The notes: generated from the sequence alone by a model not told the origin. A stretch of DNA of 64,000 nucleotides from Porphyromonas pasteri (GCF_014647755.1 NZ_BMPU01000001.1:850382-914381); one strand, 5' to 3'. Counted from the stretch's first letter, positions 11,949-63,846 are shown. Numbers and translations: made by a program.

Positions 11949-12024
11949 CCCCACCGCTTTCACTCGAGACTTCGCAGAGTGCTCACAGCCCTCTGCCAGC
12001 TCGCCGTATCTTGAGGTAAAAGCA

Positions 12025-12125
12025 ACCAGTACTGGTCACCGAGCGAAGTAGTACTGGTCACCATTAGTTACCAGTACTGGTCCGAAGCGCGACCAGTACT
12101 GATCGGATCAGTGACCAGTACTGGT
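12025..12125. promoter_or_regulatory. array of five 22-bp-phased palindromic sites (consensus GTGACCAGTACTGGTCAC) upstream of the tandem OMP genes
   Basis: ACCAGTACTGGT or one-mismatch variants start at 12025, ~12047 (left half degenerate), 12070, 12092 and 12114. Flanking GTGACC/GGTCACC extend the dyad. Confidence 0.7.
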
Positions 12126-12252
12126 TCATTTTCCCCTCCCCGCAATGCTCTTTCCCCCTACGACTTACGCCACAGCAGCACACCAACAGAAAAATTCCCT
12201 GAATTCACTAATTTAGCGGTACGATACGACACGATCTATACCTCTATCCATT

Positions 12253-13044
12253 ATGATCAAGAGACTTACTCCTCTGCTCTTTGCTCTCGGCACGCTACCC
12301 GTGCTGGCGCAGCAGACACCTAAGACAGACCCCACACAGGTCTATTCGCTCCTTGATGGGAAGACCATCATCAAGACCAATCCCTTCAGCGACATCTTCG
12401 GGAACCTCAACCTCAAGGTCGAGCGCATCCTGACCGATGGGCTTAGCGCACAGCTATCCATCTTCACCTCTCCTAAGGCCAATCAAGGGCGACAGTTCGG
12501 AGCCTTCAACGACATCACTTCGGTGACGAGTAGTATAGCCCTCTACTCCTTCCAGCCCAAGTATGTCGCCGTCGTGCCGCAAGTACGATGGTATCTCAAT
12601 GATGGCTTGGGCTATGGCTTCTACATGCAGGCGTATTATCACTACCAGCACACTCAGTTTACCAACCAAGAGATCAGCTCGCACCGCACTCTAATTGGCA
12701 GTAATACACCTGAATTTACTCTGGTATATGATGGCCAAGCTACGATGCATGGCTTCGGCTTTGGCGTCGGGGCACAGTGGCTCTTTGGCCGGAGAAAGAA
12801 TGTCGTCTTAGACTGGTACATCGCTGGGATCGGCCGTGGCTTCGTCCGAGGCAAGCTCACGGGGAGCTATACCCCAGGCATCGACCAGCAGAGCTTCACA
12901 GAGCGTATCCGCGAAGAGCTCCCTAACGAAGGAGAGGGCACTGAGTTCTCCTTTGATGCCACACAGCCGAAGGTCACGGTATCGAAGATCAAGTACCAGT
13001 CCTATATCCTTGATATGGGGCTCTCCATCGGCTTCCGTTTCTAA
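12253..13044 (+). CDS. small outer-membrane beta-barrel protein (tandem paralog 1)
   Basis: 263 aa. Signal peptide (LGTLPVLAQQ); alternating amphipathic pattern; C-terminal ...GLSIGFRF ending in Phe, typical of OM beta-barrels. Confidence 0.6.
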   Translation: MIKRLTPLLFALGTLPVLAQQTPKTDPTQVYSLLDGKTIIKTNPFSDIFGNLNLKVERILTDGLSAQLSIFTSPKANQGRQFGAFNDITSVTSSIALYSFQPKYVAVVPQVRWYLNDGLGYGFYMQAYYHYQHTQFTNQEISSHRTLIGSNTPEFTLVYDGQATMHGFGFGVGAQWLFGRRKNVVLDWYIAGIGRGFVRGKLTGSYTPGIDQQSFTERIREELPNEGEGTEFSFDATQPKVTVSKIKYQSYILDMGLSIGFRF

Positions 13045-13094
13045 CGATTCATTATTCGGCTGGGACGCAAAGCCCCAGCCCTATCTACATATTT

Positions 13095-13889
13095 ATGCGA
13101 AAGATATTTACCATCCTTATGCTTGGCCTCGGCACACTCCCCGTGCTGGCACAAGAAGCACCCAAGCCCGACCCTACCCAGCTCTACTCGCTCCTTGATG
13201 GGAGGACCATCGTCAAGACCGATCCCTTGAGCGTGGTCGTTGGGAAGCTCAACCTTCAGGTCGAGCGCCTCCTCGCCCATGGAGTCAGTGCTCAGCTCGG
13301 TCTCTACTTCACCCCTCAGGGAGATGAAGGGACGCAGTCTGGAGCCTTCCACTACCGTAGCTATGCTCTCAGCAACTCCATCGTGTTCTCTCCCGAGCAG
13401 CCGAAGCATATAGCCTTCTCGCCCCAACTAAGATGGTATCTCAATGGAGGCTTAGGACACGGCTTCTACATACAGGGCTACTACAGATTCCAGCATAGCG
13501 ACTTCACCCGCCAGCATATATATGCCCCACACAAGGTGGTAGACGACAAGATGCAGCATATCAGCGTTGACTACGACGGTCAGGCCACGACACACAGCTA
13601 CGGCCTCAGCATCGGGGCACAATGGCTCTTCGGACGACGGAAGAACATCGTCTTAGACTGGCACATCCTCGGTGTAGGACGTGGCTTCACACGCGGGAGT
13701 CTTACAGGCACCTATACTCCTGCGGTTAGCCACGCAGAGGTCGAAAAGGCTCTTCGTCAAGATATCCCCAGAGATATGACGGATGCTGTGTTTACCTTCG
13801 ATGCCACGCAGCCCCAAGTCAAGGTCTCAAAGATCAAGCAGGCATCTGACATCTTCGATATGGGCGTATCCATTGGCTTCCGCTTCTAA
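13095..13889 (+). CDS. small outer-membrane beta-barrel protein (tandem paralog 2)
   Basis: 264 aa, collinear with the preceding ORF: same signal peptide, PDPTQLYSLLDGRTIVKTDP, and ...GVSIGFRF C-terminus. Confidence 0.6.
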   Translation: MRKIFTILMLGLGTLPVLAQEAPKPDPTQLYSLLDGRTIVKTDPLSVVVGKLNLQVERLLAHGVSAQLGLYFTPQGDEGTQSGAFHYRSYALSNSIVFSPEQPKHIAFSPQLRWYLNGGLGHGFYIQGYYRFQHSDFTRQHIYAPHKVVDDKMQHISVDYDGQATTHSYGLSIGAQWLFGRRKNIVLDWHILGVGRGFTRGSLTGTYTPAVSHAEVEKALRQDIPRDMTDAVFTFDATQPQVKVSKIKQASDIFDMGVSIGFRF

Positions 13890-21510: not shown

Positions 21511-21944
21511 AGCTGAATCTATTTAATGTAAAGTACGACTGGGAGTAAGAGCATCAGGGCGCTCCTTAGAGCTACTTAGCGAGAAAGCAAGAGGTATCGA
21601 GCAGCTTGATAAGACCGCCCCGTTCATTAGAGTCTATTCCTTCCTTATAGCTGATGATCTGTTTCCTCTGCAAAGGTAATACAAATCTTACATATATCGC
21701 ACACGACATAATTAATTCGAAGGGTAAAGCCTGCGAGAATAGCCTACTCTACTTGCCTTCGTCTCACCACTGATCTCCCACTTTCAAGCCACCCAACAGC
21801 CCTATTCAGAGCATTATCTCCCACCCAACTGAGTCGCGTCCACCTAAGTCGCGCAGTCCCTTCCTATACAGCTTCACCCCTCACACACGCTGAGAAAAAG
21901 CCCCATCGCAATAATCAAATAATAGACTTCGTATAGTGTATTTT

Positions 21945-22040
21945 GCTTATCTACGTAGGTAGATTTATCATCCACGCACGTAAACTTTAAGATCCATATG
22001 CGTAGATTTTAGATCCAGGCACGTAGACAGAAGTAATGCT
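21945..22040. repeat. degenerate copy (a) of the ACGT-palindrome repeat family (same orientation as copies b and f)
   Basis: ...ATCTACGTAGGTAGATTT...CACGCACGTAAAC...ATGCGTAGATTTTAGATCCAGGCACGTAGACAG aligns with 28021-28105 and 59120-59205, with many substitutions. Confidence 0.5.
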
Positions 22041-27874: not shown

Positions 27875-27982
27875 CACCACCAAGATAAGACTATTTGCGC
27901 TCAAGCTTCATACGGTAGCGCAATTTCGGAGTCCGTCCCTTCGGAGAGAAAAGCTGAAAGTAGTAGTCAAATGATTTCCTCT

Positions 27983-28215
27983 GAGTACGAATAAAAGTTG
28001 CTGACGAATAGCTGATGAGTTTGATCTACGTGCGTGGCTCTAAAATCTACGTGCGTAGTCTTTGGGATTTACGTACATAGTCTTTAAGACTACGTGCGTA
28101 GACAAAGGAAAAGCACTATGGGAAGCTCCCTTTTCCTTCACGAGAATGTAGATTTTGCTCCGCTGGGCAAGAAAAAACCCCGTGATAGGGTTCCCACCAC
28201 CCTCCCACAGCATTA
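27983..28215. repeat. copy (b) of the ACGT-palindrome repeat family, inverted orientation, upstream of the ABC ATPase gene
   Basis: GAGTACGAATAAAAGTTG...ATCTACGTGCGTGGCTCTAAAATCTACGTGCGTAGTCTTTGGGATTTACGTACATAGTCTTTAAGACTACGTGCGTAGAC... is the reverse complement of copies c, d and e with substitutions. Confidence 0.8.
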
Positions 28216-33194: not shown

Positions 33195-33670
33195 CGAAGG
33201 AGGTGATGTGAACTAATATAGGTCGGCGCGCTGACCTATATTGAGATTGTTGCACAGAGTCCTGTTTCCTATTTAGAGTGCTAAGGCATCGTGCGCCCAG
33301 CTCCCCGATACACCTCTCCGAAGTGACCGAGCAAGCCCTACGCCTTATCACATATATTCCTCTTATCCTGCGAAGGAAAAAGTGTCCTTCTCATGAAGGA
33401 AAGAGCGCCTTCACATAGTGGTTTTTCAGTATCTATGCACGTAGTCTTAAAGACTAGGTACGTAAATCCAAATGTCCACGTACGTAGATATTAGAGCCAC
33501 GTACGTAGCCCAAACTTATTTGCCACTCGTCCACAACTTTTATCCCTACGCGGAGCAACAGTCTCATATTGGTCGAGAAGCGAAGCTATATAGGTCGATA
33601 TATGTGACCTATATTGGTTCGAGCAGTGACCTATATAGGTTCGTCCGGTGACCTATATAGGTCGCTATCC
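33195..33670. repeat. copy (c) of the ACGT-palindrome repeat family (forward orientation) with 5 x 22-bp-phased TGACC-TATATA-GGTCA sites at its right end
   Basis: Left boundary hairpin AATATAGGTC-ggcgcgc-TGACCTATATT (33215-33242). Core 33263-33560 is collinear with 40801-41095. Phased sites start at ~33561, 33582, 33604, 33626 and 33648. Confidence 0.8.
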
Positions 33671-40662: not shown

Positions 40663-40702
40663 TCTCTCGCGCTACCCAAGAGAGTAGCCAACGAGAGCAA
40701 AA

Positions 40703-40751
40703 GGTCACGGCCTCCATCCCTACCGAGTAGAGATGGAGGCCGTGACCTTTT
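40703..40751. repeat. 45-bp palindromic hairpin element, copy 1 (also serves as cbiG terminator)
   Basis: GGTCACGGCCTCCATCCCTAC-cgag-TAGAGATGGAGGCCGTGACC, preceded by CAAAA and followed by TTTTAT. Near-identical to 44071-44117. Confidence 0.75.
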
Positions 40752-40800
40752 ATATGGGGAGCGTATATCTGCTTAGATGAGGCTGTAGCCGAGAGTCCAG

Positions 40801-41215
40801 CCCTCTATTTAGAGTGCTAAGGCATCGTGCGCCCAGCTCCCCGATATACCTCTCCGAAGTGATACGCAAGCCCTTCGCCTTATCGCGAGTATTCCTCTTA
40901 TCCAGCGAAGGGAAAAGCATTGTTCTCGTGAAGAAAAAAGTGCCTTCACATAGTGGTTTTCTCTATCTACGTACGTAGTCTTAAAGACCAGGCACGTCAA
41001 TCTAAATATCCACGTACGTAGATATTAGAGCCACGTACGTAGCCCAAACTTATCTGCCACTCGTCCACAACTTTTATCCCTACGCGGAGCAACAACCTAA
41101 TATAGATCACTTCACAAAGCTATATAGGAAGCAGTCCAAAGCCATATAGCTTTGGACTGCTTCCTATATAGTTCTACCTACGCACCCATATACCTATATA
41201 TGGGATCATTGCGCA
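40801..41215. repeat. copy (d) of the ACGT-palindrome repeat family (forward) with 5 phased TATATA-core sites including a 23-bp perfect hairpin
   Basis: Core has CTACGTACGTAG at 40967-40978, CCACGTACGTAG at 41010-41021 and 41031-41042, plus a half-site remnant at ~40989. Right end has phased sites starting ~41096, 41118, 41140, 41162 and 41184; sites 2 and 4 form CTATATAGGAAGCAGTCCAAAGC-catata-GCTTTGGACTGCTTCCTATATAG. Confidence 0.8.
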
Positions 41216-41225
41216 AGGCTATCTC

Positions 41226-43803
41226 TTAGATATCGAAGGTCGCCGAGAGATAGAGGCGACGAGGACGGTTAGGCCCATAGATGTAGTCCGAAGCTCGTCC
41301 AGGACCCATATCGGTATCCTTCTGATAAGCATTGAGGAAGTTCTGTACCCCCGCATCCAGCGTGAGCTTCACCAGCGAAGTGAGGCTGATGGCATAGCTC
41401 ACACGGAAGTCAAGATCAACAAAGGGCTTTGCCTTGTATAGGTAAGCTGACCCTGCATTCTGCCCACGATAGTGCGTCCCATCACGCACGACATCAAAGT
41501 GCCCCAGAGCATTCAGCTCATTAGCTTGGAGGTTGAGATCCCCCACTCCTTCGTAGGCGGCATGAGGTACCTTCATCGAGCCCGTATAGGTGCCCGAGAG
41601 GACGAAGCTCAGAGCAGAGGTAGGACGAAGCGTAGCGGTCAGATAGCCGTAGAGATTAGGGGTACGCTCGTAGTCTCGTGTGGTGACCTTGGCCTGCGTA
41701 GGATTGTCTTCATCAGCATCGAAGAGCACCTTGTCCTGCCCGTAGAGGCTGCGCTGTAGGGTCACGCCGCCCTGCAGGTCGAAGAGGCGCTGGTACGCCA
41801 GACGAGCCTCGAAGCTCAGGCCATAGACCTTGCTCATCCCGTCACGAGCGTTGATGATCGTGATGACCTTGCGCCCCGTCTTGGGGTCGAGGACACCATC
41901 CTCGTTGTCTGGAGTGAACTTGTCTCGGATCCAGGTAGCGAAGCCTTCACCCATGAGGTTGAGCTGCCAGCCCTTCCCCAGCGTGGTGTACCAGTCGAAG
42001 GAGGCGCTGAGACTGCGAGAGCGCTCTTCCTTCAGATCCTTCGCTAGGACACGCTCCTTGGGCTCACCACCCGCCAGCGTGACATGCATCTCCTCATCGA
42101 AGAACTGAGGAGCACGGAAGCCTTCGCTGTAAGAGAGGCGCAGACTGAGGTCCTTGGTAGGATTGAAGCGTACGTTTGCTCTGGGGCTGAAGATGAGGAG
42201 CGGGTCAATGCTCTTCTGCCCCCCTTGCGTCAGACGGACATAGTCGAAGCGCCCACCGAGGAGGAAGTTCCACCGGTCGGTCGAATACTCCAGCTGGTCG
42301 TACTGAGACCAAGTCGTTGTGACCTGATCGATCCCATGAGCACGGTAGCCACTCTTATCGTTGAGCGTCGAGTAAGCACCCTCAGCACCTACCGTAAGAG
42401 TAAGTGACTTGGGGAACTTGTGGACATAGGTACCGCCCCCCTGGAAGTCAAAGCCCTTGGTCTCGCCATAGGCTGTCAGTGCCTTGAGAGCATCGTCATA
42501 GGCCTTCTGATACACCTCGGCCTGCTTCTTCTCCTCGTCAGTGCCTTGGGCATTACCACGAGGGAGGTTGATCAGGGGCTTCAGAAGCTCATCGGCGTAG
42601 TTGCCCCCACCATAGTAGCTCTTACGCAGGACCTTCTGCCCCGAGGCATAGAGACTGAAGCTGTCGTTGCCCTCAGCAGTCGTCTGGTCGAAGCGTAGGC
42701 TTCCCCCATCGACGAAGTGCTGGAGGTACTCAGCGATACGAGCTTGGAAGGGTGCTTCGCTCAGGCGATCACCACCACGACGATACTCGTGCATGGAGCG
42801 GTATTCAGCCGTCAGCTTGCCATAGATGCCCGTCTTGTAGTAGGCACGGAAGCCGAGGGCTCTATTCTTCAGTTCGGGAATATCGGTGAAGTCATCCCCA
42901 TCGACATCCACGATCCCTCGAGAGGAATGCTGACCGAAGATCATCGCAGCAGCACGGCGGTCTTCGCTGACCAGAGAACCGTTGAACGAGGTGGTAGGCA
43001 TCAGCGAAGTGTATGCCCCCTTGTTCTGCTGGAAGGAAGTATAGCTCTGGCGAAGGCTAGCGGTATTGCGCAGAGGCTCTCTTGTGATCACATTGATCAC
43101 CCCACCGACGGCATTAGCACCGAAGAGGGCTGATCCACCCCCACGTACCACCTCGACACGCTCGATCATAGAGGCAGGGATCTGCTCCAGACCATAAACG
43201 CCAGCAAGCGAGCTGAAGATAGGACGGCTATCGATGAGGATCTGAGAATAAGCCCCTTCAAGCCCGTTGATACGCACTTGGTTGAAGCCACAGTTCTGAC
43301 AGTTGTCCTCGATGCGAAGACCTGGCTGGAAGCGGAGACCTTGGCTGAGGTTCTCCGAATTGGTCTTCTTGAAGATCTCCTGCGAGAGGACGGTGACAAG
43401 GCTCGGTGCATGACGGCGAAGCGTCTCCTGACGATTAGCCGAGACGACGACCCCATCGAGGTCAATACTCTGCTGCTGGAGGTAGAGATCGAGGTGGCGA
43501 CTATTCCCAGCTTCGATACCGACACGGCTCTCCTCCACCCCATAGCCCACGAGACGTGCTTGGATGGTATAAGAGCCCGGAGCAAGGCCTTGGATGGAGA
43601 ATGCTCCATGGACATCGGTCGTCGTACCAATAGTCGTCCCCTTGATGAGAACCTGGACATTAGGAAGGGCTTCGTGAGTCGAAGCATCGACGACGGTACC
43701 CACGATACTCCCCGTCGTCGCTGAGTGCTGTGCCTGAGCTTGCCCAAGGGCCACAAGGACAAGGCTCAGCAGTAGTGCCATACGGCAAATAATACTCTTC
43801 ATG
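41226..43803 (-). CDS. TonB-dependent receptor with N-terminal carboxypeptidase-regulatory-like domain
   Basis: Signal peptide (MKSIICRMALLLSLVLVALGQAQA) and CarbopepD_reg-like domain (TGSIVGTVVDASTHEALPNVQV). Plug region (VSANRQETL...NLSQGL, DSRPIFSSL...GLEQIPASMIERVEVVRGGGSALFGANAVGGVINVITR), then a 22-strand-type barrel. Start taken at the internal Met. Confidence 0.85.
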
Positions 43804-44070
43804 TATACTATAAGTTGATTATACGAATCGGACCAACAACAGAGCAAGACGTAGTCCTCCCAGCGCAACTCACCCGTCAAAGGATCCAGGGAAAGGGCTA
43901 CATGTCGAGCGGAGAGAGAGGCTTTCTCGAGAGCGATTCCTCGGTAGAGCGAGGGATCTTGTTCTGTTTAGGTCTACACAAAGTTAAACACAGAAAGCAC
44001 AACTATGGATCACCTACCCACAAAATACCTATTGCTGGGGATAGACTGATACCCGCTAATAAGCTAATAA

Positions 44071-44117
44071 ATAGGTCACGGCCTCCATCTCTACTCGGTA
44101 GAGATGGAGGCCGTGAC
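44071..44117. repeat. 45-bp palindromic hairpin element, copy 2
   Basis: GGTCACGGCCTCCATCTCTAC-tcg-GTAGAGATGGAGGCCGTGACC, a perfect 21-bp stem. Lies between the minus-strand small-membrane-protein gene end and the TonB receptor start. Confidence 0.75.
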
Positions 44118-44140
44118 CTATTATTATTAAGGAATAGTCC

Positions 44141-45512: not shown

Positions 45513-46901
45513 TTAGTCTTCGCCCTCGACGACCTTGTGGAAGTCCGTGCCTTCCTTGAGCTTACCATCATTAGTAAGCACCCAGGCCTCAGAGGAGCTC
45601 GCCACGACATAGCCACCAGAGAAGCGAGTAGTCTTCAGCGTATAAGCGAAGTGATCTTCTTCATCAGAATAGCTCCACAGCACCTTGCCCGTCTGGGCAT
45701 CCAGGCATCGGAGGATCCTTGTCGCATCAGAGGCTGCCGTGGGCTTGAAAGAAATGAGGACTCGGTCAGCTGCCTCATGAAGGACCGCAGGAGAGAAGTA
45801 GTAAGCCCCTGGGGTAAAGTCTTCGTAGCCCTGCAGGCGTGAGCGCTCTGCTGTATAAGGCAAGACGAAGACCTTGCGATAGGGCGAGGCATCAGTGAAG
45901 ATCCCAGAGCCACCATAGTCTTTCTGCCAGCCGAAGTCTGGCTCATCGTACGGATAACCGACCTGCTCAAGCGTACGGTAGCGCACCAGCTGGATCTGCT
46001 GATCCTCATAGTCAGTAGTCTGACGTGAGAAGGTAAAGTGCGTGCCGACCTTAGGAGCGGGGAGCTTCTCCAGATAGCCCTTATAGGCCATCTTCTCGCC
46101 ATAGAGCTTATTGGGGATAGGATAGTAGACAAAGCTCTTACCCAGATTTGTCATGACCTTCAGGCCATCACCATTGTCCCTATAGACGAACTCTACCGTC
46201 GCAAAGCCCTCGCTGAACTCAGCTACCTTATAGTCCTCGCCATGGATCTCCTTCATATCGAGCGTCGAGGGATCGATACGATAGAGGTGCTTCTTATTGA
46301 GGATAAGGTAAACTGACCCATCTCCGAACTGACGTAAGCCCGTCACATCGACGCTCCCCTTCAGATCAGGGAGCTGGATATCCTTGAGGACCTTCTTTGT
46401 CTCTCCATCATAGAGCCGCACAAAGCCTTGGGCATTCTTTGAGCTCGTATTCATCTGATAGGCAGAGCCACAGACCACCACGACGGGGCGCCCTGCTGCA
46501 CTGGCAAAGAGCTCGATGGGCTCCAAGTCATAGGACATACGCTCCTTCAGAGTACCGGTATAGCCGTAGCCTCCCTGTGAGGCCGCGATACGCTCGGCCA
46601 CACGGTCCATCGAGCGACTGGAGGTGAGATTACCGATGATGACCAGGAGGAAGAATGCAAACGATGCCCCTCCTGCGATGAGGAGGCTGCGCTTGGGGTG
46701 TGCTGAGAACTGCGACTGGATGAAGGAGAAGGGATTCGAGTTATCGGGTACCGTCTCATGCTTGTGATGGATGGTGATATCATCCGAGTCGAGGAAGAAC
46801 TCCGTCGAGCAGCTATCACAGCGGTAGTGATCCTCGCGGATCAGCGTGGCGCGCGTGCTACCGCACTGGGGGCATTTCAGAGCTTTGATGTGCTTGGGCA
46901 T
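45513..46901 (-). CDS. zinc-ribbon / single-TM / beta-propeller-like membrane protein, paralog A
   Basis: N-terminal MPKHIKALKCPQCGSTRATLIREDHYRCDSCSTEF (CxxC-N17-CxxC zinc ribbon), one TM (LLIAGGASFAFFLLVIIGNL), ~370-aa extracytoplasmic domain ending in a PQQ/BamB-like blade motif (RCLDAQTGKVLWSYS). Confidence 0.65.
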   Translation of the reverse strand: MPKHIKALKCPQCGSTRATLIREDHYRCDSCSTEFFLDSDDITIHHKHETVPDNSNPFSFIQSQFSAHPKRSLLIAGGASFAFFLLVIIGNLTSSRSMDRVAERIAASQGGYGYTGTLKERMSYDLEPIELFASAAGRPVVVVCGSAYQMNTSSKNAQGFVRLYDGETKKVLKDIQLPDLKGSVDVTGLRQFGDGSVYLILNKKHLYRIDPSTLDMKEIHGEDYKVAEFSEGFATVEFVYRDNGDGLKVMTNLGKSFVYYPIPNKLYGEKMAYKGYLEKLPAPKVGTHFTFSRQTTDYEDQQIQLVRYRTLEQVGYPYDEPDFGWQKDYGGSGIFTDASPYRKVFVLPYTAERSRLQGYEDFTPGAYYFSPAVLHEAADRVLISFKPTAASDATRILRCLDAQTGKVLWSYSDEEDHFAYTLKTTRFSGGYVVASSSEAWVLTNDGKLKEGTDFHKVVEGED

Positions 46902-47020
46902 ACTGGGTATGAGCTATGCGAAGAGCTATAAATATGTGTAAGTTACGAACGTGATAAAGTCCTGTATTCGTATGGGGCAAAGCCTCTACAAGGACAAATT
47001 TAAGTAAGAAATACGAGTAG

Positions 47021-48331
47021 TTAAGAGCGGCCTTCGATGAGCTTACGATAATCCGTGCTGCTCACGAGCTTACCCTCGTTGGAGATGACGTAGGACGAAC
47101 GGTTGTTCACCACGACATAGCCACCCGCGAAGCGTGATGCGACGGACCCACCATGGAGATTATTTTCATCATCGGAGTAGCTCCACAGCACCTTCCCGGT
47201 CTGGGCATCCAAGCATCGGAGCATTTGCTTAGCGTCATCGGCTGCTGTGGGCTTGAAGGTGATGAGGATCTGGTCTTCCGACTCATCAAGGACCCCAGGC
47301 GAGAAGTAATAAGCCCCAGGAGTCAGATCTTCATACCCCTGCAGACGCGCACGCTTCTCACTGGTGGAGCTGATCAAAAAGTCCTCACCATCCCAGCTCC
47401 GCCATTGGAACCTTGGGTATTCGCAAGGATAGCCGTCCTGCTCGAGTCTACGGTAGCGTATGAGCTGGAGCTGCTTATTGGGATAGTCTGAGGACTCAAG
47501 CGAAAAGGAGAAGTGTGTAGCTACCTGAGGAGCTGGGAGCGTCTCCAGAGGAGCAAAATAAGCCTCCCTCTCCGTATAGATCTTATCAGCAATGGGATAG
47601 TAGACGAAGCTCTCACCCAGATTTGTCTTGACCTCCAAGGCATCCCCAAACTGAGAGTAATAAAATACCACCTTTGCAAATCCCTGAGTGAGCTCAGGGC
47701 GCTTATAGTCCTCACCATGGACCTCCGTCATATCGAGCGTCGAGGGATCGAGCCTATAAAGGTGAGCCTCATTGAAGACAATGTAAAAAGCCCCATCCCC
47801 AAATCGGCGCATATCCATATTCTGGATTCGCCCCTTCACGTCAAGGAGCTCAATCTTCTTAACCAGCTTTTGAGTCTCCCCATCAAAGAAGGACACGAAG
47901 CTCTTAGCATCATCGACATTGCTTGAGCTGGCCGGACGAGCAGTGCCAAAGATCACGACGATCGGACGTCCCGCTGTAGTGGTAAAGGTAGCGAGCTCCT
48001 CAATACTGTAGGACATCCCCTCCTCTCCGCTACCCATCCCCGAGCTTCCTGCACGGGATCTTCCGAAGGTAATAAGCCCTATGATAATGAGTGAGAAGAA
48101 GACCGTCACCGCAAGGAGGACGAGGAAGAAGCGCTTGAACTTCGCTGCGAAGGTATTTCCGAGGGGAGATCCATTGCGCTCCGTCTCAAACTTGTGATGG
48201 ATAGTGATATCATCCGAGTCGAGATAAAACTCTGTCGAGCAGCTGTCGCAGCGGTAGTGATCCTCGCGAAGCAGTGTGGCACGCGTACTACCACACTGCG
48301 GACATTTGATCGTTTTGATATGCGTGGGCAT
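47021..48331 (-). CDS. zinc-ribbon / single-TM / beta-propeller-like membrane protein, paralog B
   Basis: MPTHIKTIKCPQCGSTRATLLREDHYRCDSCSTEFYLDSDDITIHHK; TM (FFLVLLAVTVFFSLIIIGLITF); conserved C-terminal ...PGAYYFSPGVL...FKPTAADDAKQMLRCLDAQTGKVLWSYSD. Confidence 0.65.
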   Translation of the reverse strand: MPTHIKTIKCPQCGSTRATLLREDHYRCDSCSTEFYLDSDDITIHHKFETERNGSPLGNTFAAKFKRFFLVLLAVTVFFSLIIIGLITFGRSRAGSSGMGSGEEGMSYSIEELATFTTTAGRPIVVIFGTARPASSSNVDDAKSFVSFFDGETQKLVKKIELLDVKGRIQNMDMRRFGDGAFYIVFNEAHLYRLDPSTLDMTEVHGEDYKRPELTQGFAKVVFYYSQFGDALEVKTNLGESFVYYPIADKIYTEREAYFAPLETLPAPQVATHFSFSLESSDYPNKQLQLIRYRRLEQDGYPCEYPRFQWRSWDGEDFLISSTSEKRARLQGYEDLTPGAYYFSPGVLDESEDQILITFKPTAADDAKQMLRCLDAQTGKVLWSYSDDENNLHGGSVASRFAGGYVVVNNRSSYVISNEGKLVSSTDYRKLIEGRS

Positions 48332-48407
48332 CCTGTATATGAGCTATGCAAAGAGGTATGTTTAGGTGAGAGGGCACATACTATGCAGGGGGAGGCTGGA
48401 GTTCGTG

Positions 48408-49709
48408 TTACCTAAAGCGGCTATGGATATCCACACAAGTCATCACCTTACCCTCACTGGAGATCAGCCAAGAGTGAGAGTAGTCTACCAATACATAGCC
48501 GCCAGAGAAGCGCGCTACGCCTAAGCAGAAGTCGAGGCCGTCCAGCCCCTCAGAGCAGCTCCACAGCACCTTACCCGTCTGAGCATCCAGACATCGGAGC
48601 ATCTTCTTGGCATCAGCGGCTGCCGTGGGCTTGAAGGAAATGAGGATCTGGTCAGCCGACTCATAAAGGACGGTAGGCGAGAAGTAGTAGGACCCTGGAG
48701 TAAAGTCCTCGTAGCTCTGTAAGCGTGACTGCTCTACGACGTACTGGCTGACAAAGATCTTTTTCGGATAGTATGAATGCCTGTCATTCTCCCAGCCAAA
48801 AGATGGGATATAACGAGGATATCCGAGCTGCTCCAGTGCCTGATAGCGTACAAGCTGGATCTGCTCATCCTGGTAGTCAGATCCCGTCATCTGCTCTGAG
48901 AAGGTAAAGTGAGTCCTGAGCTGAGGCGCGGGAAGCTTATCCTCATAAGCCTTGAAAATTGACCGATCAGTGTAGAGCTTATTAGCTATGGGATAGTAGA
49001 CAAACTTCTTTCCCAGATTCGTCTCGACCTCCAGGGCATCCCCATATTTGTAGAAGTAAAGCCCGACCTTACCAAAGCCCTCAGTGAACTCTGGTAGCTT
49101 ATAGTCCTCACCATGGATCTCCTTCACATCAAGCGTCGAGCGATCAATCGCAAAGAGGCGCTTCTTATTGAGGACGACATAGTAAGTCCCGTCCTCGAAC
49201 TGACGTGCATCCGTCACACTGACACTCCCCGTCACATCAGGGAGCTCAAGCTTCTTGATGATCTCATAAGTCTCTCCATCGAAGAAGTACATGAAGCCCT
49301 TAGCATGATCCCAGTCCCCACTGGAGTCGTCACGGCGCGCAGCACCACAGAGCACGACGATGGGGCGCCCTGCCGTACTGGAGAAGGCCATGAGCCGCTC
49401 ACAGGCATAGGACATATGCTCCTCACCATCCCTCTCCCTCGAGGTCTCTTCTCGAGAGCTTCCCCAGACGATGAGCCCTATAGTAATGAGCGAGAAGAAG
49501 GCCGCCGGCGCAAGGATGATGAGGAGTAGACGCCTAAGGAAGGTATTGGGAGCTGGCTTCGTCTCTACCTTGTGATGGATGGTGATATCATCCGAGTCGA
49601 GATAGAACTCCGTCGAGCAGCTGTCGCAGCGGTAGTGGTCCTCGCTAATCTTTGTAGCGCGCGTGCTACCACACTGGGGACATTTCAGAGCTTTGATATG
49701 CGTGGGCAT
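48408..49709 (-). CDS. zinc-ribbon / single-TM / beta-propeller-like membrane protein, paralog C
   Basis: Start taken at MPTHIKALKCPQCGSTRATKISEDHYRCDSCSTEFYLDSDDITIHHK (the ORF tracker's 20-codon N-terminal extension is probably spurious). TM (LLLIILAPAAFFSLITIGLIVW); conserved C-terminal block ...LRCLDAQTGKVLWSCSE. Confidence 0.65.
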   Translation of the reverse strand: MPTHIKALKCPQCGSTRATKISEDHYRCDSCSTEFYLDSDDITIHHKVETKPAPNTFLRRLLLIILAPAAFFSLITIGLIVWGSSREETSRERDGEEHMSYACERLMAFSSTAGRPIVVLCGAARRDDSSGDWDHAKGFMYFFDGETYEIIKKLELPDVTGSVSVTDARQFEDGTYYVVLNKKRLFAIDRSTLDVKEIHGEDYKLPEFTEGFGKVGLYFYKYGDALEVETNLGKKFVYYPIANKLYTDRSIFKAYEDKLPAPQLRTHFTFSEQMTGSDYQDEQIQLVRYQALEQLGYPRYIPSFGWENDRHSYYPKKIFVSQYVVEQSRLQSYEDFTPGSYYFSPTVLYESADQILISFKPTAAADAKKMLRCLDAQTGKVLWSCSEGLDGLDFCLGVARFSGGYVLVDYSHSWLISSEGKVMTCVDIHSRFR

Positions 49710-49847
49710 CCGAACGATTAAGCTAAGTGGTGAGCTGTGTAAGGGGGTGCTACAGCCCTTACATAACAAGAGGATACACCAAGAGAGCCCGCCTCTATAT
49801 GGGCAGGCTCACTTGGTGCATACTATAGTGGGTGTGAAAATGCAGAG

Positions 49848-50687: not shown

Positions 50688-50995
50688 AACCTATATTGGT
50701 CAAGCAAACCCTTCTTATCGCGAGGATTCTTCTTATCCAGCGGAGGGAAAAGTGTCCTTCTCGTGAAGAAAAAAGCGCTTTCACGTAGTGGTTTTTCTCT
50801 GTCTATGCACGTAGTCTTAAAGACCAGGCACGCAAATCCAAATATCCACGTACGTAGATATTAGGACCACGTACGTAGCCCAAACTTATCTGCCACTCGT
50901 CCACAACTTTTTTATCCCGACGCGAAGCAACAACCTAATAGAGGTCACTTATCAATGCTATATAGCTTCGCCCGCTGACCCATATAGGTTCACAC
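50688..50995. repeat. copy (e) of the ACGT-palindrome repeat family (forward) with 3 phased TATATA-type sites
   Basis: Left: CGAACCTATATTGGTCAAG. Core: ...CTATGCACGTAGTCTTAAAGACCAGGCACGCAAATCCAAATATCCACGTACGTAGATATTAGGACCACGTACGTAGCCCAAACTTATCTGCCACTCGTCCACAACTTTTTTATCCC. Right sites start at ~50934, 50955 and 50976. Confidence 0.8.
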
Positions 50996-56178: not shown

Positions 56179-56224
56179 CCGCTACCATGAGAGGGATATG
56201 AAGAAGAAGCGCGCAATAGAAGCA

Positions 56225-56612
56225 GTGGAGCTATAAGCCGAGTTCTGTACCCGTGGGCGGTCACCCACCCGATGGGTGTCTGTCATTTATCTGGGATGGT
56301 AGTCACCTACCACCTCGTGCGGTCTACCCTCCGACTGGGGCGAGCAACCCTCGTAGCGTCGGTTTACATGACCTTGCAACCCATAGGATGTACGGCAGCA
56401 TGTATTGCTACACACTCCGGTGAGCTCTTACCTCACCTTTTCACCATCACCGCGGGGGAGCGAGTCCTCCGTGGCTGTCATTCTCTGTTACACCTACCTA
56501 CCCTCACGGATAGCTTCCCGTTAGGAAGTATGGCGCTCTGCGTTGCCCGGACGTTCCTCACACGCCCTTCAGCCCAAGGGCCAAAGGGGTGCGCGACAGA
56601 CCGCCCCACTGC
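56225..56612 (-). ncRNA. rnpB: RNase P RNA (bacterial type A)
   Basis: Reverse complement contains the universally conserved blocks: ...GAGGAACGUCCGGGCAAC... (the P4 5' strand, GGAAAGUCCGGGC-like), ...GGUGAAAAGGUGAGGUAAGAGCUCACC..., and the 3' ...ACAGAACUCGGCUUAUAG. Terminal P1 pairing GAGCAGUGGGGC/GCUCCACUGCUUC. Confidence 0.85.
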
Positions 56613-58990: not shown

Positions 58991-59080
58991 CCTCTGCGAC
59001 CTCCCCCCACGCAGCTGTGCCCTACGGCATTTACTTCCTCGGAGGAAAAATCAAGGAATAGCAGTGGTATGACTTCTTAT

Positions 59081-59290
59081 GAGGACGAATAAAAGTGGCG
59101 AACCTATAGCTGATAAGCTGAATCTATGTGCGTGGCTCTAAAATCCACGTACATAGTCGTTCGGATTTACGCACCTGGTCTTTAAGACTACGTACATAGA
59201 CAGCAAAAAAGCACTGCGGGACGCTACTTTTTTCTTCACGGGAATAGCGTTTTCCCCTCTGCTGAATCAAGACGTATGCTATATCGTGAA
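59081..59290. repeat. copy (f) of the ACGT-palindrome repeat family, inverted orientation, upstream of the TPR gene
   Basis: GAGGACGAATAAAAGTGGCGAACCTATAGCTGATAAGCTGAATCTATGTGCGTGGCTCTAAAATCCACGTACATAGTCGTTCGGATTTACGCACCTGGTCTTTAAGACTACGTACATAGACAGC... aligns with copy b. Confidence 0.75.
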
Positions 59291-63378: not shown

Positions 63379-63737
63379 ATATATATGTAGAGGAAAGCCT
63401 ATCCGCCCTTGAAGATAGGGCTCCCATAGGGGGAACCGAGCCTATCCGTATCCGCTCCACGGCTATCCTACGAGCTACAAAAACGAACCTATACAGGGGC
63501 GCCGCTCCGACCAGTATTGGTCACGATACGAAGCAATATAGGTTACTTTCCTCTCCTCGCAGGTATGCGTCTGCAGTGAGCTGGTGGGATATGCTCGTTC
63601 TTCCGCGAGCTAGTGGGTGCGAGTTGGTGGAGTACTGATGCGAGTGCCGTGCGGAGGCTATGCGCTGCCCTCACGGCGGTAGGCATATAAACGGCGATAG
63701 GGTGACGAAGCTTGCACTCCATCACCCTACCTCTTAA

Positions 63738-63846
<109 letters not shown>

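Follow-up and report, generated by a model that had tools for sequence, protein, structure and literature searches.

Six intergenic repeat copies and their surroundings

The stretch of DNA analysed here, referred to as the window, comprises 64,000 nucleotides with a G+C content of approximately 57%; Bacteroidota TAnnTTTG promoter motifs are visible in it, and it encodes proteins of the Porph_ging family. These features, and the matches of the core pattern in a Porphyromonas MAG described below, give it the appearance of a chromosome of the Porphyromonas type. Repeat finding and alignment revealed six copies of one repeat, designated a to f, which align collinearly with four ACGTAG-type boxes and are all intergenic. 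The gene pairs that flank them encode ordinary and unrelated functions, i.e., OsmC/HU-HIG, ABC-2 permease/ABC ATPase, HD-domain protein/DUF4836, CbiG-type protein/TonB-dependent receptor, nitroreductase/NorB, and hypothetical protein/TPR protein. A sequence-only reading of the window had proposed six intergenic copies that share a collinear core and represent a non-autonomous element, with no transposase or integrase nearby. All six were recovered at or near the positions proposed, their collinearity and intergenic location were borne out, and, according to Pfam, none of the major ORFs in the window encodes a transposase or integrase. The location of the copies was also correct, but the ranges given for copies c, d, and e had taken in flanking 22-bp palindrome repeats, and that for copy d a second small element as well.

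The identities of the copies refer to a 322-nt consensus that was derived from 87 fully flanked copies in metagenome contigs matching the core pattern; L-numbers (e.g., L099) are labels of related contigs or loci, with L126-L130 denoting IMG/VR contigs. Copies c, d, and e are young, and copies a, b, and f are decaying relics. Copy c (33243-33565, plus strand, 89% identity) is a complete 323-bp MITE with the left inverted repeat GAGATTGTTGCA (33243-33254), the right inverted repeat GCAACAGTCTC (33555-33565), and boxes starting at 33433, 33454, 33476, and 33497, all on the plus strand. It is flanked by the target duplication ATATT (33238-33242 on the left, 33566-33570 on the right), which splits the palindrome GACCTATATTGGTC. 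Copy d matches the consensus at 40779-41094 (plus strand, 94% identity) and is part of a composite of 447 bp (40779-41225) in which three modules follow one another on the plus strand. The first module, the MITE proper (40779-41099), carries the left inverted repeat GAGGCTGTAGC and the degenerate right inverted repeat GCAACAACCTA (41089-41099). The second (41100-41201) consists of 22-bp palindrome repeats of the CTATATAG type and includes a long hairpin at 41117-41174, and the third (41202-41225, 24 bp) is a collapsed second MITE, GGGATCATTGCGCAAGGCTATCTC, in which two GAGACCATTGCGCAA-type inverted repeats are fused. The perfect direct repeat TTAGAT (40773-40778 on the left, 41226-41231 on the right) flanks the entire 447-bp composite, and its right copy includes the stop codon of a TonB-dependent receptor ORF (41226..43880, minus strand); the flanks of this composite in L118 are identical to those in the window. 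Copy e (50704-50937, consensus match 50704-50932, plus strand, 93% identity) is 5'-truncated, with positions 88-322 of the consensus still present; its right end is the degenerate GCAACAACCTA (50927-50937), and palindromes flank it at 50689-50700 and 50978-50989.

The relics lack recognisable ends. Only the four-box array can be recognised in copy a (21941-22026, plus strand), which is 72% identical to consensus positions 179-265. Copies b (27941-28215, consensus match 28190-27976, 76% identity) and f (59039-59290, consensus match 59280-59089, 74% identity), both on the minus strand, have a tail of their own in common and belong to the same divergent subfamily.

Besides the repeat family, several other features were encountered in the window. 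Two 55-nt perfect hairpins (40699-40753 and 44070-44124; AAAAGGTCACGGCCTCCATC...GATGGAGGCCGTGACCTTTT, 89-94% identical) bracket composite d and the TonB-dependent receptor gene; these hairpins look like terminators yet form a repeat family of their own. Three tandem paralogous ORFs of 436-462 aa, with a weak DUF5074 match and 70-83% nucleotide identity, occupy 45513-49769 on the minus strand, and additional tandem paralogue sets were found at 228-2031 and 12253-13889. The tandem sets include two Porph_ging-family ORFs as well as two ORFs of approximately 263 aa, the second of which has a weak DUF3575 match and the first no Pfam match. Moreover, Rfam searches of the window identified a class A RNase P RNA (56218-56612, minus strand, 237 bits) and a 5S rRNA (63737-63846, minus strand); the end of the window is therefore the edge of an rRNA operon.

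Ends, composite forms, and mobility of the element

The element consensus is 322 bp long and non-coding, with indels in individual copies, and no conserved ORF with a start codon was found in it. Terminal inverted repeats of 11 bp (GAGACTGTTGC...GCAACAGTCTC) occupy constant positions in copy c as well as in many of the metagenome copies; in many copies, GAGACTGTTGC forms the start, approximately 189 nt ahead of box 1, and GCAACAGTCTC forms the end, approximately 133 nt behind it, which yields elements of 320-328 bp. Most copies have a degenerate right end (AACCTA), the intact form being AGTCTC. Target duplications of 5-6 bp were observed, including ATATT (copy c and several other loci), CATAG (L047/L055), CAGTA (L080), and TTAGAT (composite d). 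A clean duplication is missing in 9 of 21 flank groups, and duplications are absent or imperfect in about half; short flank matches may also be due to chance, because the target is AT-rich. Among the IS5-family ends that have been tabulated for P. gingivalis, those of ISPg4 are GAGACTGTTGCA and CGCAACAGTCTC, and those of MITEPgRS are given as GAGACTGTTGCA/TGCAACGGTCTC (Klein et al. 2015, Table 2, PMC4596501). The ends of the present element match the tabulated ISPg4 sequences GAGACTGTTGCA and CGCAACAGTCTC (PMC4596501) at 11 of 12 positions at either end. An IS or MITE with inverted repeats that match a known transposase, which the sequence-only reading had treated as the contrary case, is essentially what such ISPg4/MITEPgRS-type ends represent.

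The right-hand side of the element distinguishes two forms. Copies with the intact right end AGTCTC have diverse right flanks, and those with the degenerate right end AACCTA, which form the majority, mostly continue with ATAKAGGTCACTTCACAAAGCTAT and then with a second small MITE that has GAGACCATTGCGCAA-type ends. The distance to this second MITE amounts to 57-59, 77-79, 101-103, or 145-146 nt, in steps of approximately 22, and the resulting composites measure 445-595 bp. Composites in L014 and L075 possess their own flanking half-palindromes; the composites have their own flanking duplication and therefore moved as one piece. Elements of 515-531 bp were considered as versions with extra boxes, which was rejected, as they consist of the MITE, 22-bp repeats, and the second MITE. 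The second MITE family has ISPg1-like ends (GAGACCATTGCGCAA...TTGCGCAATGGTCTC) and sizes of 113-130 bp, and it also occurs as end-to-end fusions of 22-24 bp with nothing in between; its members were found in the window (41202-41225), in L045 (9621-9733 and 11073-11094), in L014 (9637-9764), and in L075. The earlier description of a 250-450-bp element was correct as to a non-autonomous mobile repeat and is refined as to its extent: the repeat is a 322-bp MITE that occurs either by itself or linked with 22-bp repeats and a further MITE.

At the site of copy e, L045 has a full-length copy of the element and a composite insertion of 1.47 kb. This composite (L045 9621-11094) is bounded by two second-MITE elements, contains a 311-aa ORF, lies in a split palindrome with ATATT/ATATA flanks, and is missing from the window at the same site beside copy e. 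Judged by the impression its sequence gives, the ORF may encode an alpha/beta-hydrolase, in DNA that appears lower in G+C.

The core pattern was found in more than 112 metagenome contigs, the flanks of which are unrelated and represent about 70 distinct contexts, and in five stretches of the reference-genome collection, three of which are in one 'uncultured Porphyromonas sp.' MAG. The presence of six copies within 38 kb could point to a local segmental duplication within this chromosome region. However, the spread over more than 112 metagenome contigs, the approximately 70 flank contexts, and the mutually unrelated flanks of the window copies refute this explanation, which is left with practically no probability. 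Comparison of related loci provided direct support for insertion. Copies c and d are present in all of L118-L125, which are contigs with an identical acetyltransferase gene, and the copy c site, filled in the window and in L118-L125, is empty in L099 and L069, which represent a lineage that is 95-97% identical to the window. In the empty allele of L099 and L069, the insertion point is occupied by one uninterrupted 14-bp palindrome. At a second polymorphic site, L010 has the insertion and L078 lacks it. The view of a dispersed mobile family rather than a local duplication was thereby upheld by more than 112 metagenome contigs and two filled/empty sites.

The relics have a different history. Copy a is present at the same site in L111, copy b is kept at its site in L099, L069, and L111, and copy f is kept in L045. 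Compared with their orthologues, copies a, b, and f differ at 5-9% of positions, and the rest of the same intergenic regions differs at 2-10%. No host selection on these relics was detected, their divergence being that of the neighbouring intergenic DNA. Since they are shared with a diverged lineage and diverge at the intergenic rate, the relics are old and apparently neutral.

Small size (less than approximately 600 bp), lack of coding capacity, inverted repeats, target duplication, and dispersed copies with filled and empty sites are generic features of prokaryotic MITEs, all of which are found here. Taken together, the six repeats are very probably copies of a non-autonomous MITE that is moved in trans via IS5-type ends and is designed like the MITEs of P. 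gingivalis.

Two groups of metagenome contigs show particular contexts of the element. Five contigs from IMG/VR that are classified as viral (L126-L130) carry the MITE, and three of these have the right flank ...ATAACCACCAAATGTGCAGTA in common with the chromosomal-looking L005, L030, and L104; they may represent prophage regions or misclassified host DNA. In three independent assemblies (L003 at 7684, L049 at 996, and L074 at 1767), the MITE is cut a few bases past box 4 and joined to DNA of approximately 30% G+C, which encodes DUF308, three paralogous unknown proteins of approximately 315 aa, and a Band_7/SHOCT protein. This junction may be the edge of an inserted island, which probably explains the binning of one of the three contigs as Flavobacteriaceae.

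The internal four-box array

Allowing at most one mismatch, ACGTACGTAG occurs 26 times in the window, exclusively inside the six copies, against 2.28 expected occurrences, and none of 100 shuffles reached 26. In copy d, on the plus strand, box 1 is CTACGTACGTAG (40967-40978), box 2 is CAGGCACGTCAA (40989-41000), and boxes 3 and 4 are CCACGTACGTAG (41010-41021 and 41031-41042). The spacing of 22, 21, and 21 bp confirms the grid of approximately 21.5 bp that had been noticed, including the half-site near 40989, and Tandem Repeats Finder independently detected a period of 21 in copies a and d (21959-22027 and 40964-41020, respectively). The perfect 12-bp palindrome that had been emphasised is indeed present in copy d at 40967-40978, but it is atypical: CTACGTACGTAG serves as box 1 in only 4 of the 87 copies, whereas box 1 usually reads CTATGCACGTAG or is closely similar to it. 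The imperfect CCACGTACGTAG is found as boxes 3 and 4 in 61-66 of the 87 copies, and box 2 amounts to half a box. With the perfect palindrome rare, boxes 3 and 4 imperfect, and box 2 halved, the conserved feature is therefore a direct 21-22-bp repeat with YACGTAG and partial dyad symmetry.

Conservation of the boxes depends on the age of the copies. Spacers are conserved as well as boxes in the young copies. In the five most divergent copies, identity to the consensus is 73-85% for the boxes, 51-76% for the spacers, 59% for the leader, and 52% for the tail, which contradicts the earlier impression that substitutions are concentrated in the palindromes. Orthologue comparison of the box stretch revealed relaxed evolution in copies a and f, and only relic b is unusually conserved, with just 1-3 differences from its orthologues. 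The better keeping of the boxes in divergent copies and in relic b leaves room for some function of the boxes. Repetition is not confined to the boxes, as the leader of the MITE contains two 23-nt direct units with the internal inverted repeat GAAGG-N9-CCTTC (33372-33416 in the window, and likewise in every young copy). We infer that the box array is a built-in minisatellite module of the element and not a host regulatory device.

Alternatively, a dimeric host transcription factor could use the phased boxes as operators, which would lie immediately downstream of a Bacteroidota-type promoter on the reverse strand, so that spread of the element would wire genes into a regulon as a portable regulatory module. 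The 21-22-bp spacing puts the boxes on one helix face, and a reverse-strand TAnnTTTG -7 motif (TAAGTTTG) lies beside box 4 in 60 of the 87 copies. In five of the six window copies this reverse strand is aimed at a gene start, the tail-to-leader direction has been published as that of the strongest promoter activity of BrickBuilt in E. coli, and old copies keep their boxes better than their spacers. However, orientation is evenly divided (12 versus 12) in 24 tandem gene contexts, and the chance probability for the window is 0.25, because only copies b and e are informative there. Moreover, the neighbouring genes are functionally unrelated, young copies conserve spacers as much as boxes, box positions decay at the intergenic rate in relics a and f, and the -7 motif has been lost in copies b and f. 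A regulatory role of this kind is accordingly judged to be distinctly unlikely.

A second alternative holds that the repeats are structured non-coding RNA genes or cis-regulatory RNA leaders in which the self-complementary boxes pair. RNAalifold does pair box 1 with box 3, and BrickBuilt regions are, according to published work, transcribed in P. gingivalis. Against this stand the weak consensus fold of 10 diverse copies (-8 kcal/mol, with a covariation term of 0.02 and double changes in only 2 of 19 pairs), the lack of any Rfam family at the gathering or E-value thresholds, with only sub-threshold miRNA-hairpin noise for 40700-41260, and the random orientation relative to genes. An RNA gene would also leave the inverted repeats, duplications, and empty sites unexplained, and this alternative is considered highly improbable.

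Four direct repeats at two-turn spacing resemble iterons; the array could in that case be an iteron- or centromere-like remnant of a plasmid, ICE, or phage, bound by a protein of the Rep or ParB type. The conserved part of the unit, i.e., the direct motif ACGTAG rather than a perfect dyad, and the presence of the element on five IMG/VR contigs are in line with such an origin. However, no rep, par, or integrase gene adjoins any of the window copies, BLAST searches of 72,556 plasmids and 50,697 phage records were negative, and the copies lie between housekeeping genes, with the array always inside the same MITE. The chance that this explanation applies is very small.

Restriction-site logic did not single out the boxes in the window: ACGT (observed/expected 0.68) and GTAC (0.82) display a mild deficit, and TACGTA and CGTACG are unremarkable. 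Independently, CTAG is nearly missing from the window (7 sites, observed/expected 0.04) and CCGG has an observed/expected ratio of 0.22; neither occurs in the boxes, and their avoidance suggests restriction-modification pressure.

Insertion target, related elements, and palindrome arrays

The element is mostly flanked by the halves of a 14-bp palindrome, with ...ACCTATAT on its left and ATATAGGT... on its right. Many insertions are located in the AT-rich palindrome centre, although this preference is not absolute, copy d being inserted at CTTAGAT. The palindromes occur in arrays; over all sequence examined, 214 spacings of 22 bp and 31 of 23 bp were counted. The insertion target of copy c is such an array, with palindromes of the GACCTATATAGGTC type at 22-23-bp spacing (33584-33662, continuing at 33212-33242 across copy c); Tandem Repeats Finder reported a period of 22 at 33604-33662. 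Another palindrome array is present in the window at 12015-12135.

The closest parallels are found in the same genus. MITEPgRS (MITE464) of P. gingivalis contains Repeats A and B inside both ends and a 41-nt Repeat C that is repeated in tandem up to 14 times (Naito et al. 2008, PMC2575886). Its ends were assigned to ISPg1 in that study (PMC2575886), and they equal those of ISPg4 in the later Table 2 (Klein et al. 2015, PMC4596501). As judged by description and ends, the two elements are both non-autonomous, with IS5-family-type ends and an interior of repeat modules that includes a tandem repeat; they differ in that the tandem unit of MITEPgRS measures 41 nt, whereas the element described here has four 21-22-nt units and two 23-nt units in an asymmetric arrangement. 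In the BrickBuilt elements of P. gingivalis and P. gulae, which have IS5-type ends, a 23-nt unit repeated 1 to 22.8 times stands between a leader and a tail (Klein et al. 2015, PMC4596501). The composites reproduce this layout, with a leader, a variable number of tandem repeats of approximately 22-23 nt, a tail, and short IS5-type inverted ends, and with a gap of 57-146 nt between the MITE and the second MITE that grows in steps of approximately 22 nt. Both families are always intergenic, include partial and repeat-only copies, and have flanking duplications of inconsistent length. Identity with BrickBuilt was nevertheless rejected, as its 23-nt unit AGACCATAGTATCCTCTCATATG had no match with up to five mismatches in 1.15 Mb of sequence of this organism and was also absent from IMG/VR. 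The BrickBuilt ends, GAGACCTTTGCA, are different as well; in addition, the leader here is a complete MITE with its own four-box array, and the tandem repeats are 14-bp palindromes that are also found as free-standing arrays. The literature searched yielded no description of MITEs in other Porphyromonas species.

More distant parallels exist outside the genus. IS1397 and ISKpn1, which belong to the IS3 or IS110 families, insert into enterobacterial REPs of approximately 35 nt. Both these IS and the present element insert centrally into short chromosomal palindromes that are organised in arrays; the present element differs by its IS5-type ends, the 14-bp palindrome, the 22-bp period, and the 5-bp duplication. 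The Correia elements (CREE) of Neisseria are likewise short, abundant intergenic MITEs, with possible promoter content, protein-binding sites, and a TA duplication; their sequence, ends, and duplication are unrelated, and they lack an internal phased repeat array.

For the non-autonomous MITE favoured here, it can be proposed that a DDE transposase of the IS5 family (ISPg4/ISPg1 type) mobilises it in trans. This enzyme would bind to the terminal repeats and cut the two strands approximately 5 bp apart, and the parent is envisaged as an IS5-family element with GAGACTGTTGC or GAGACCATTGCG as its ends. The putative link to this transposase derives from the published terminal-repeat table (PMC4596501). 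The parent was sought among pairs of terminal repeats 0.9-2.5 kb apart in all loci, and neither the window nor 1.15 Mb of related loci yielded an autonomous IS with the element's ends. The sole match with MITE-type ends, a pair of 1,774 bp in L031, spans housekeeping genes and was dismissed as a chance pair; the long pair in L045 was rejected as well, since it has second-MITE ends and encloses the composite with the putative hydrolase ORF, without a transposase. The four-box array, with YYAYGYACGTAG every 21-22 bp, or two helical turns, would be a minisatellite module like those of MITEPgRS and BrickBuilt. If the boxes are bound at all, our guess is that the likeliest partner would be a dimeric protein that acts on the element, or a nucleoid protein.

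The family is a genuine mobile MITE and, with some details unexplained, fairly ordinary selfish DNA. It extends the design of a MITE with built-in tandem repeats, so far encountered in P. gingivalis and P. gulae, to a Porphyromonas lineage of higher G+C content that is frequent in metagenome assemblies. The design is modular, in that the leader is itself a mobile MITE, and a preferred landing site has been identified in the centre of 14-bp palindromes in 22-bp arrays. Elements of this kind break assemblies and create spurious ORFs, and their filled and empty sites can be used as strain markers.

The sole feature that could open new biology is the concerted difference between orthologous palindrome arrays. 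At both polymorphic sites (window 33212-33662 versus L099 10250-10400 and L069; L010 6430-6900 versus L078 10400-10620), every unit of the array reads ACC-TATATA-GGT in the filled allele and ACC-AGTACT-GGT in the empty allele, and the spacers between the units are largely the same in the two alleles. Because whole arrays differ in concert, spacers are kept, and the MITE sits in the TATATA allele at both loci, the boxes and array palindromes could be read as binding-site arrays for sequence-specific dimeric proteins of discrete specificity types, which is regarded as unlikely. If true, this would imply that entire arrays are rewritten or converted in a single process coupled to transposon targeting, loosely like REP/RAYT systems, the architecture of which is different. 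One explanation for the concerted difference is replacement by a paralogous array. Exact-protein look-ups returned no orthologues of the array at approximately 12 kb. Arrays at different loci do have spacers in common, as is the case for the window array at 12015-12135 and L099, and the TATATA and AGTACT types coexist in the window. Finally, the commonest perfect 12-mers in 1.1 Mb are ACCTATATAGGT (59 occurrences), AGCTATATAGCT (46), ACCAGTACTGGT (43), and CTACGTACGTAG (16).
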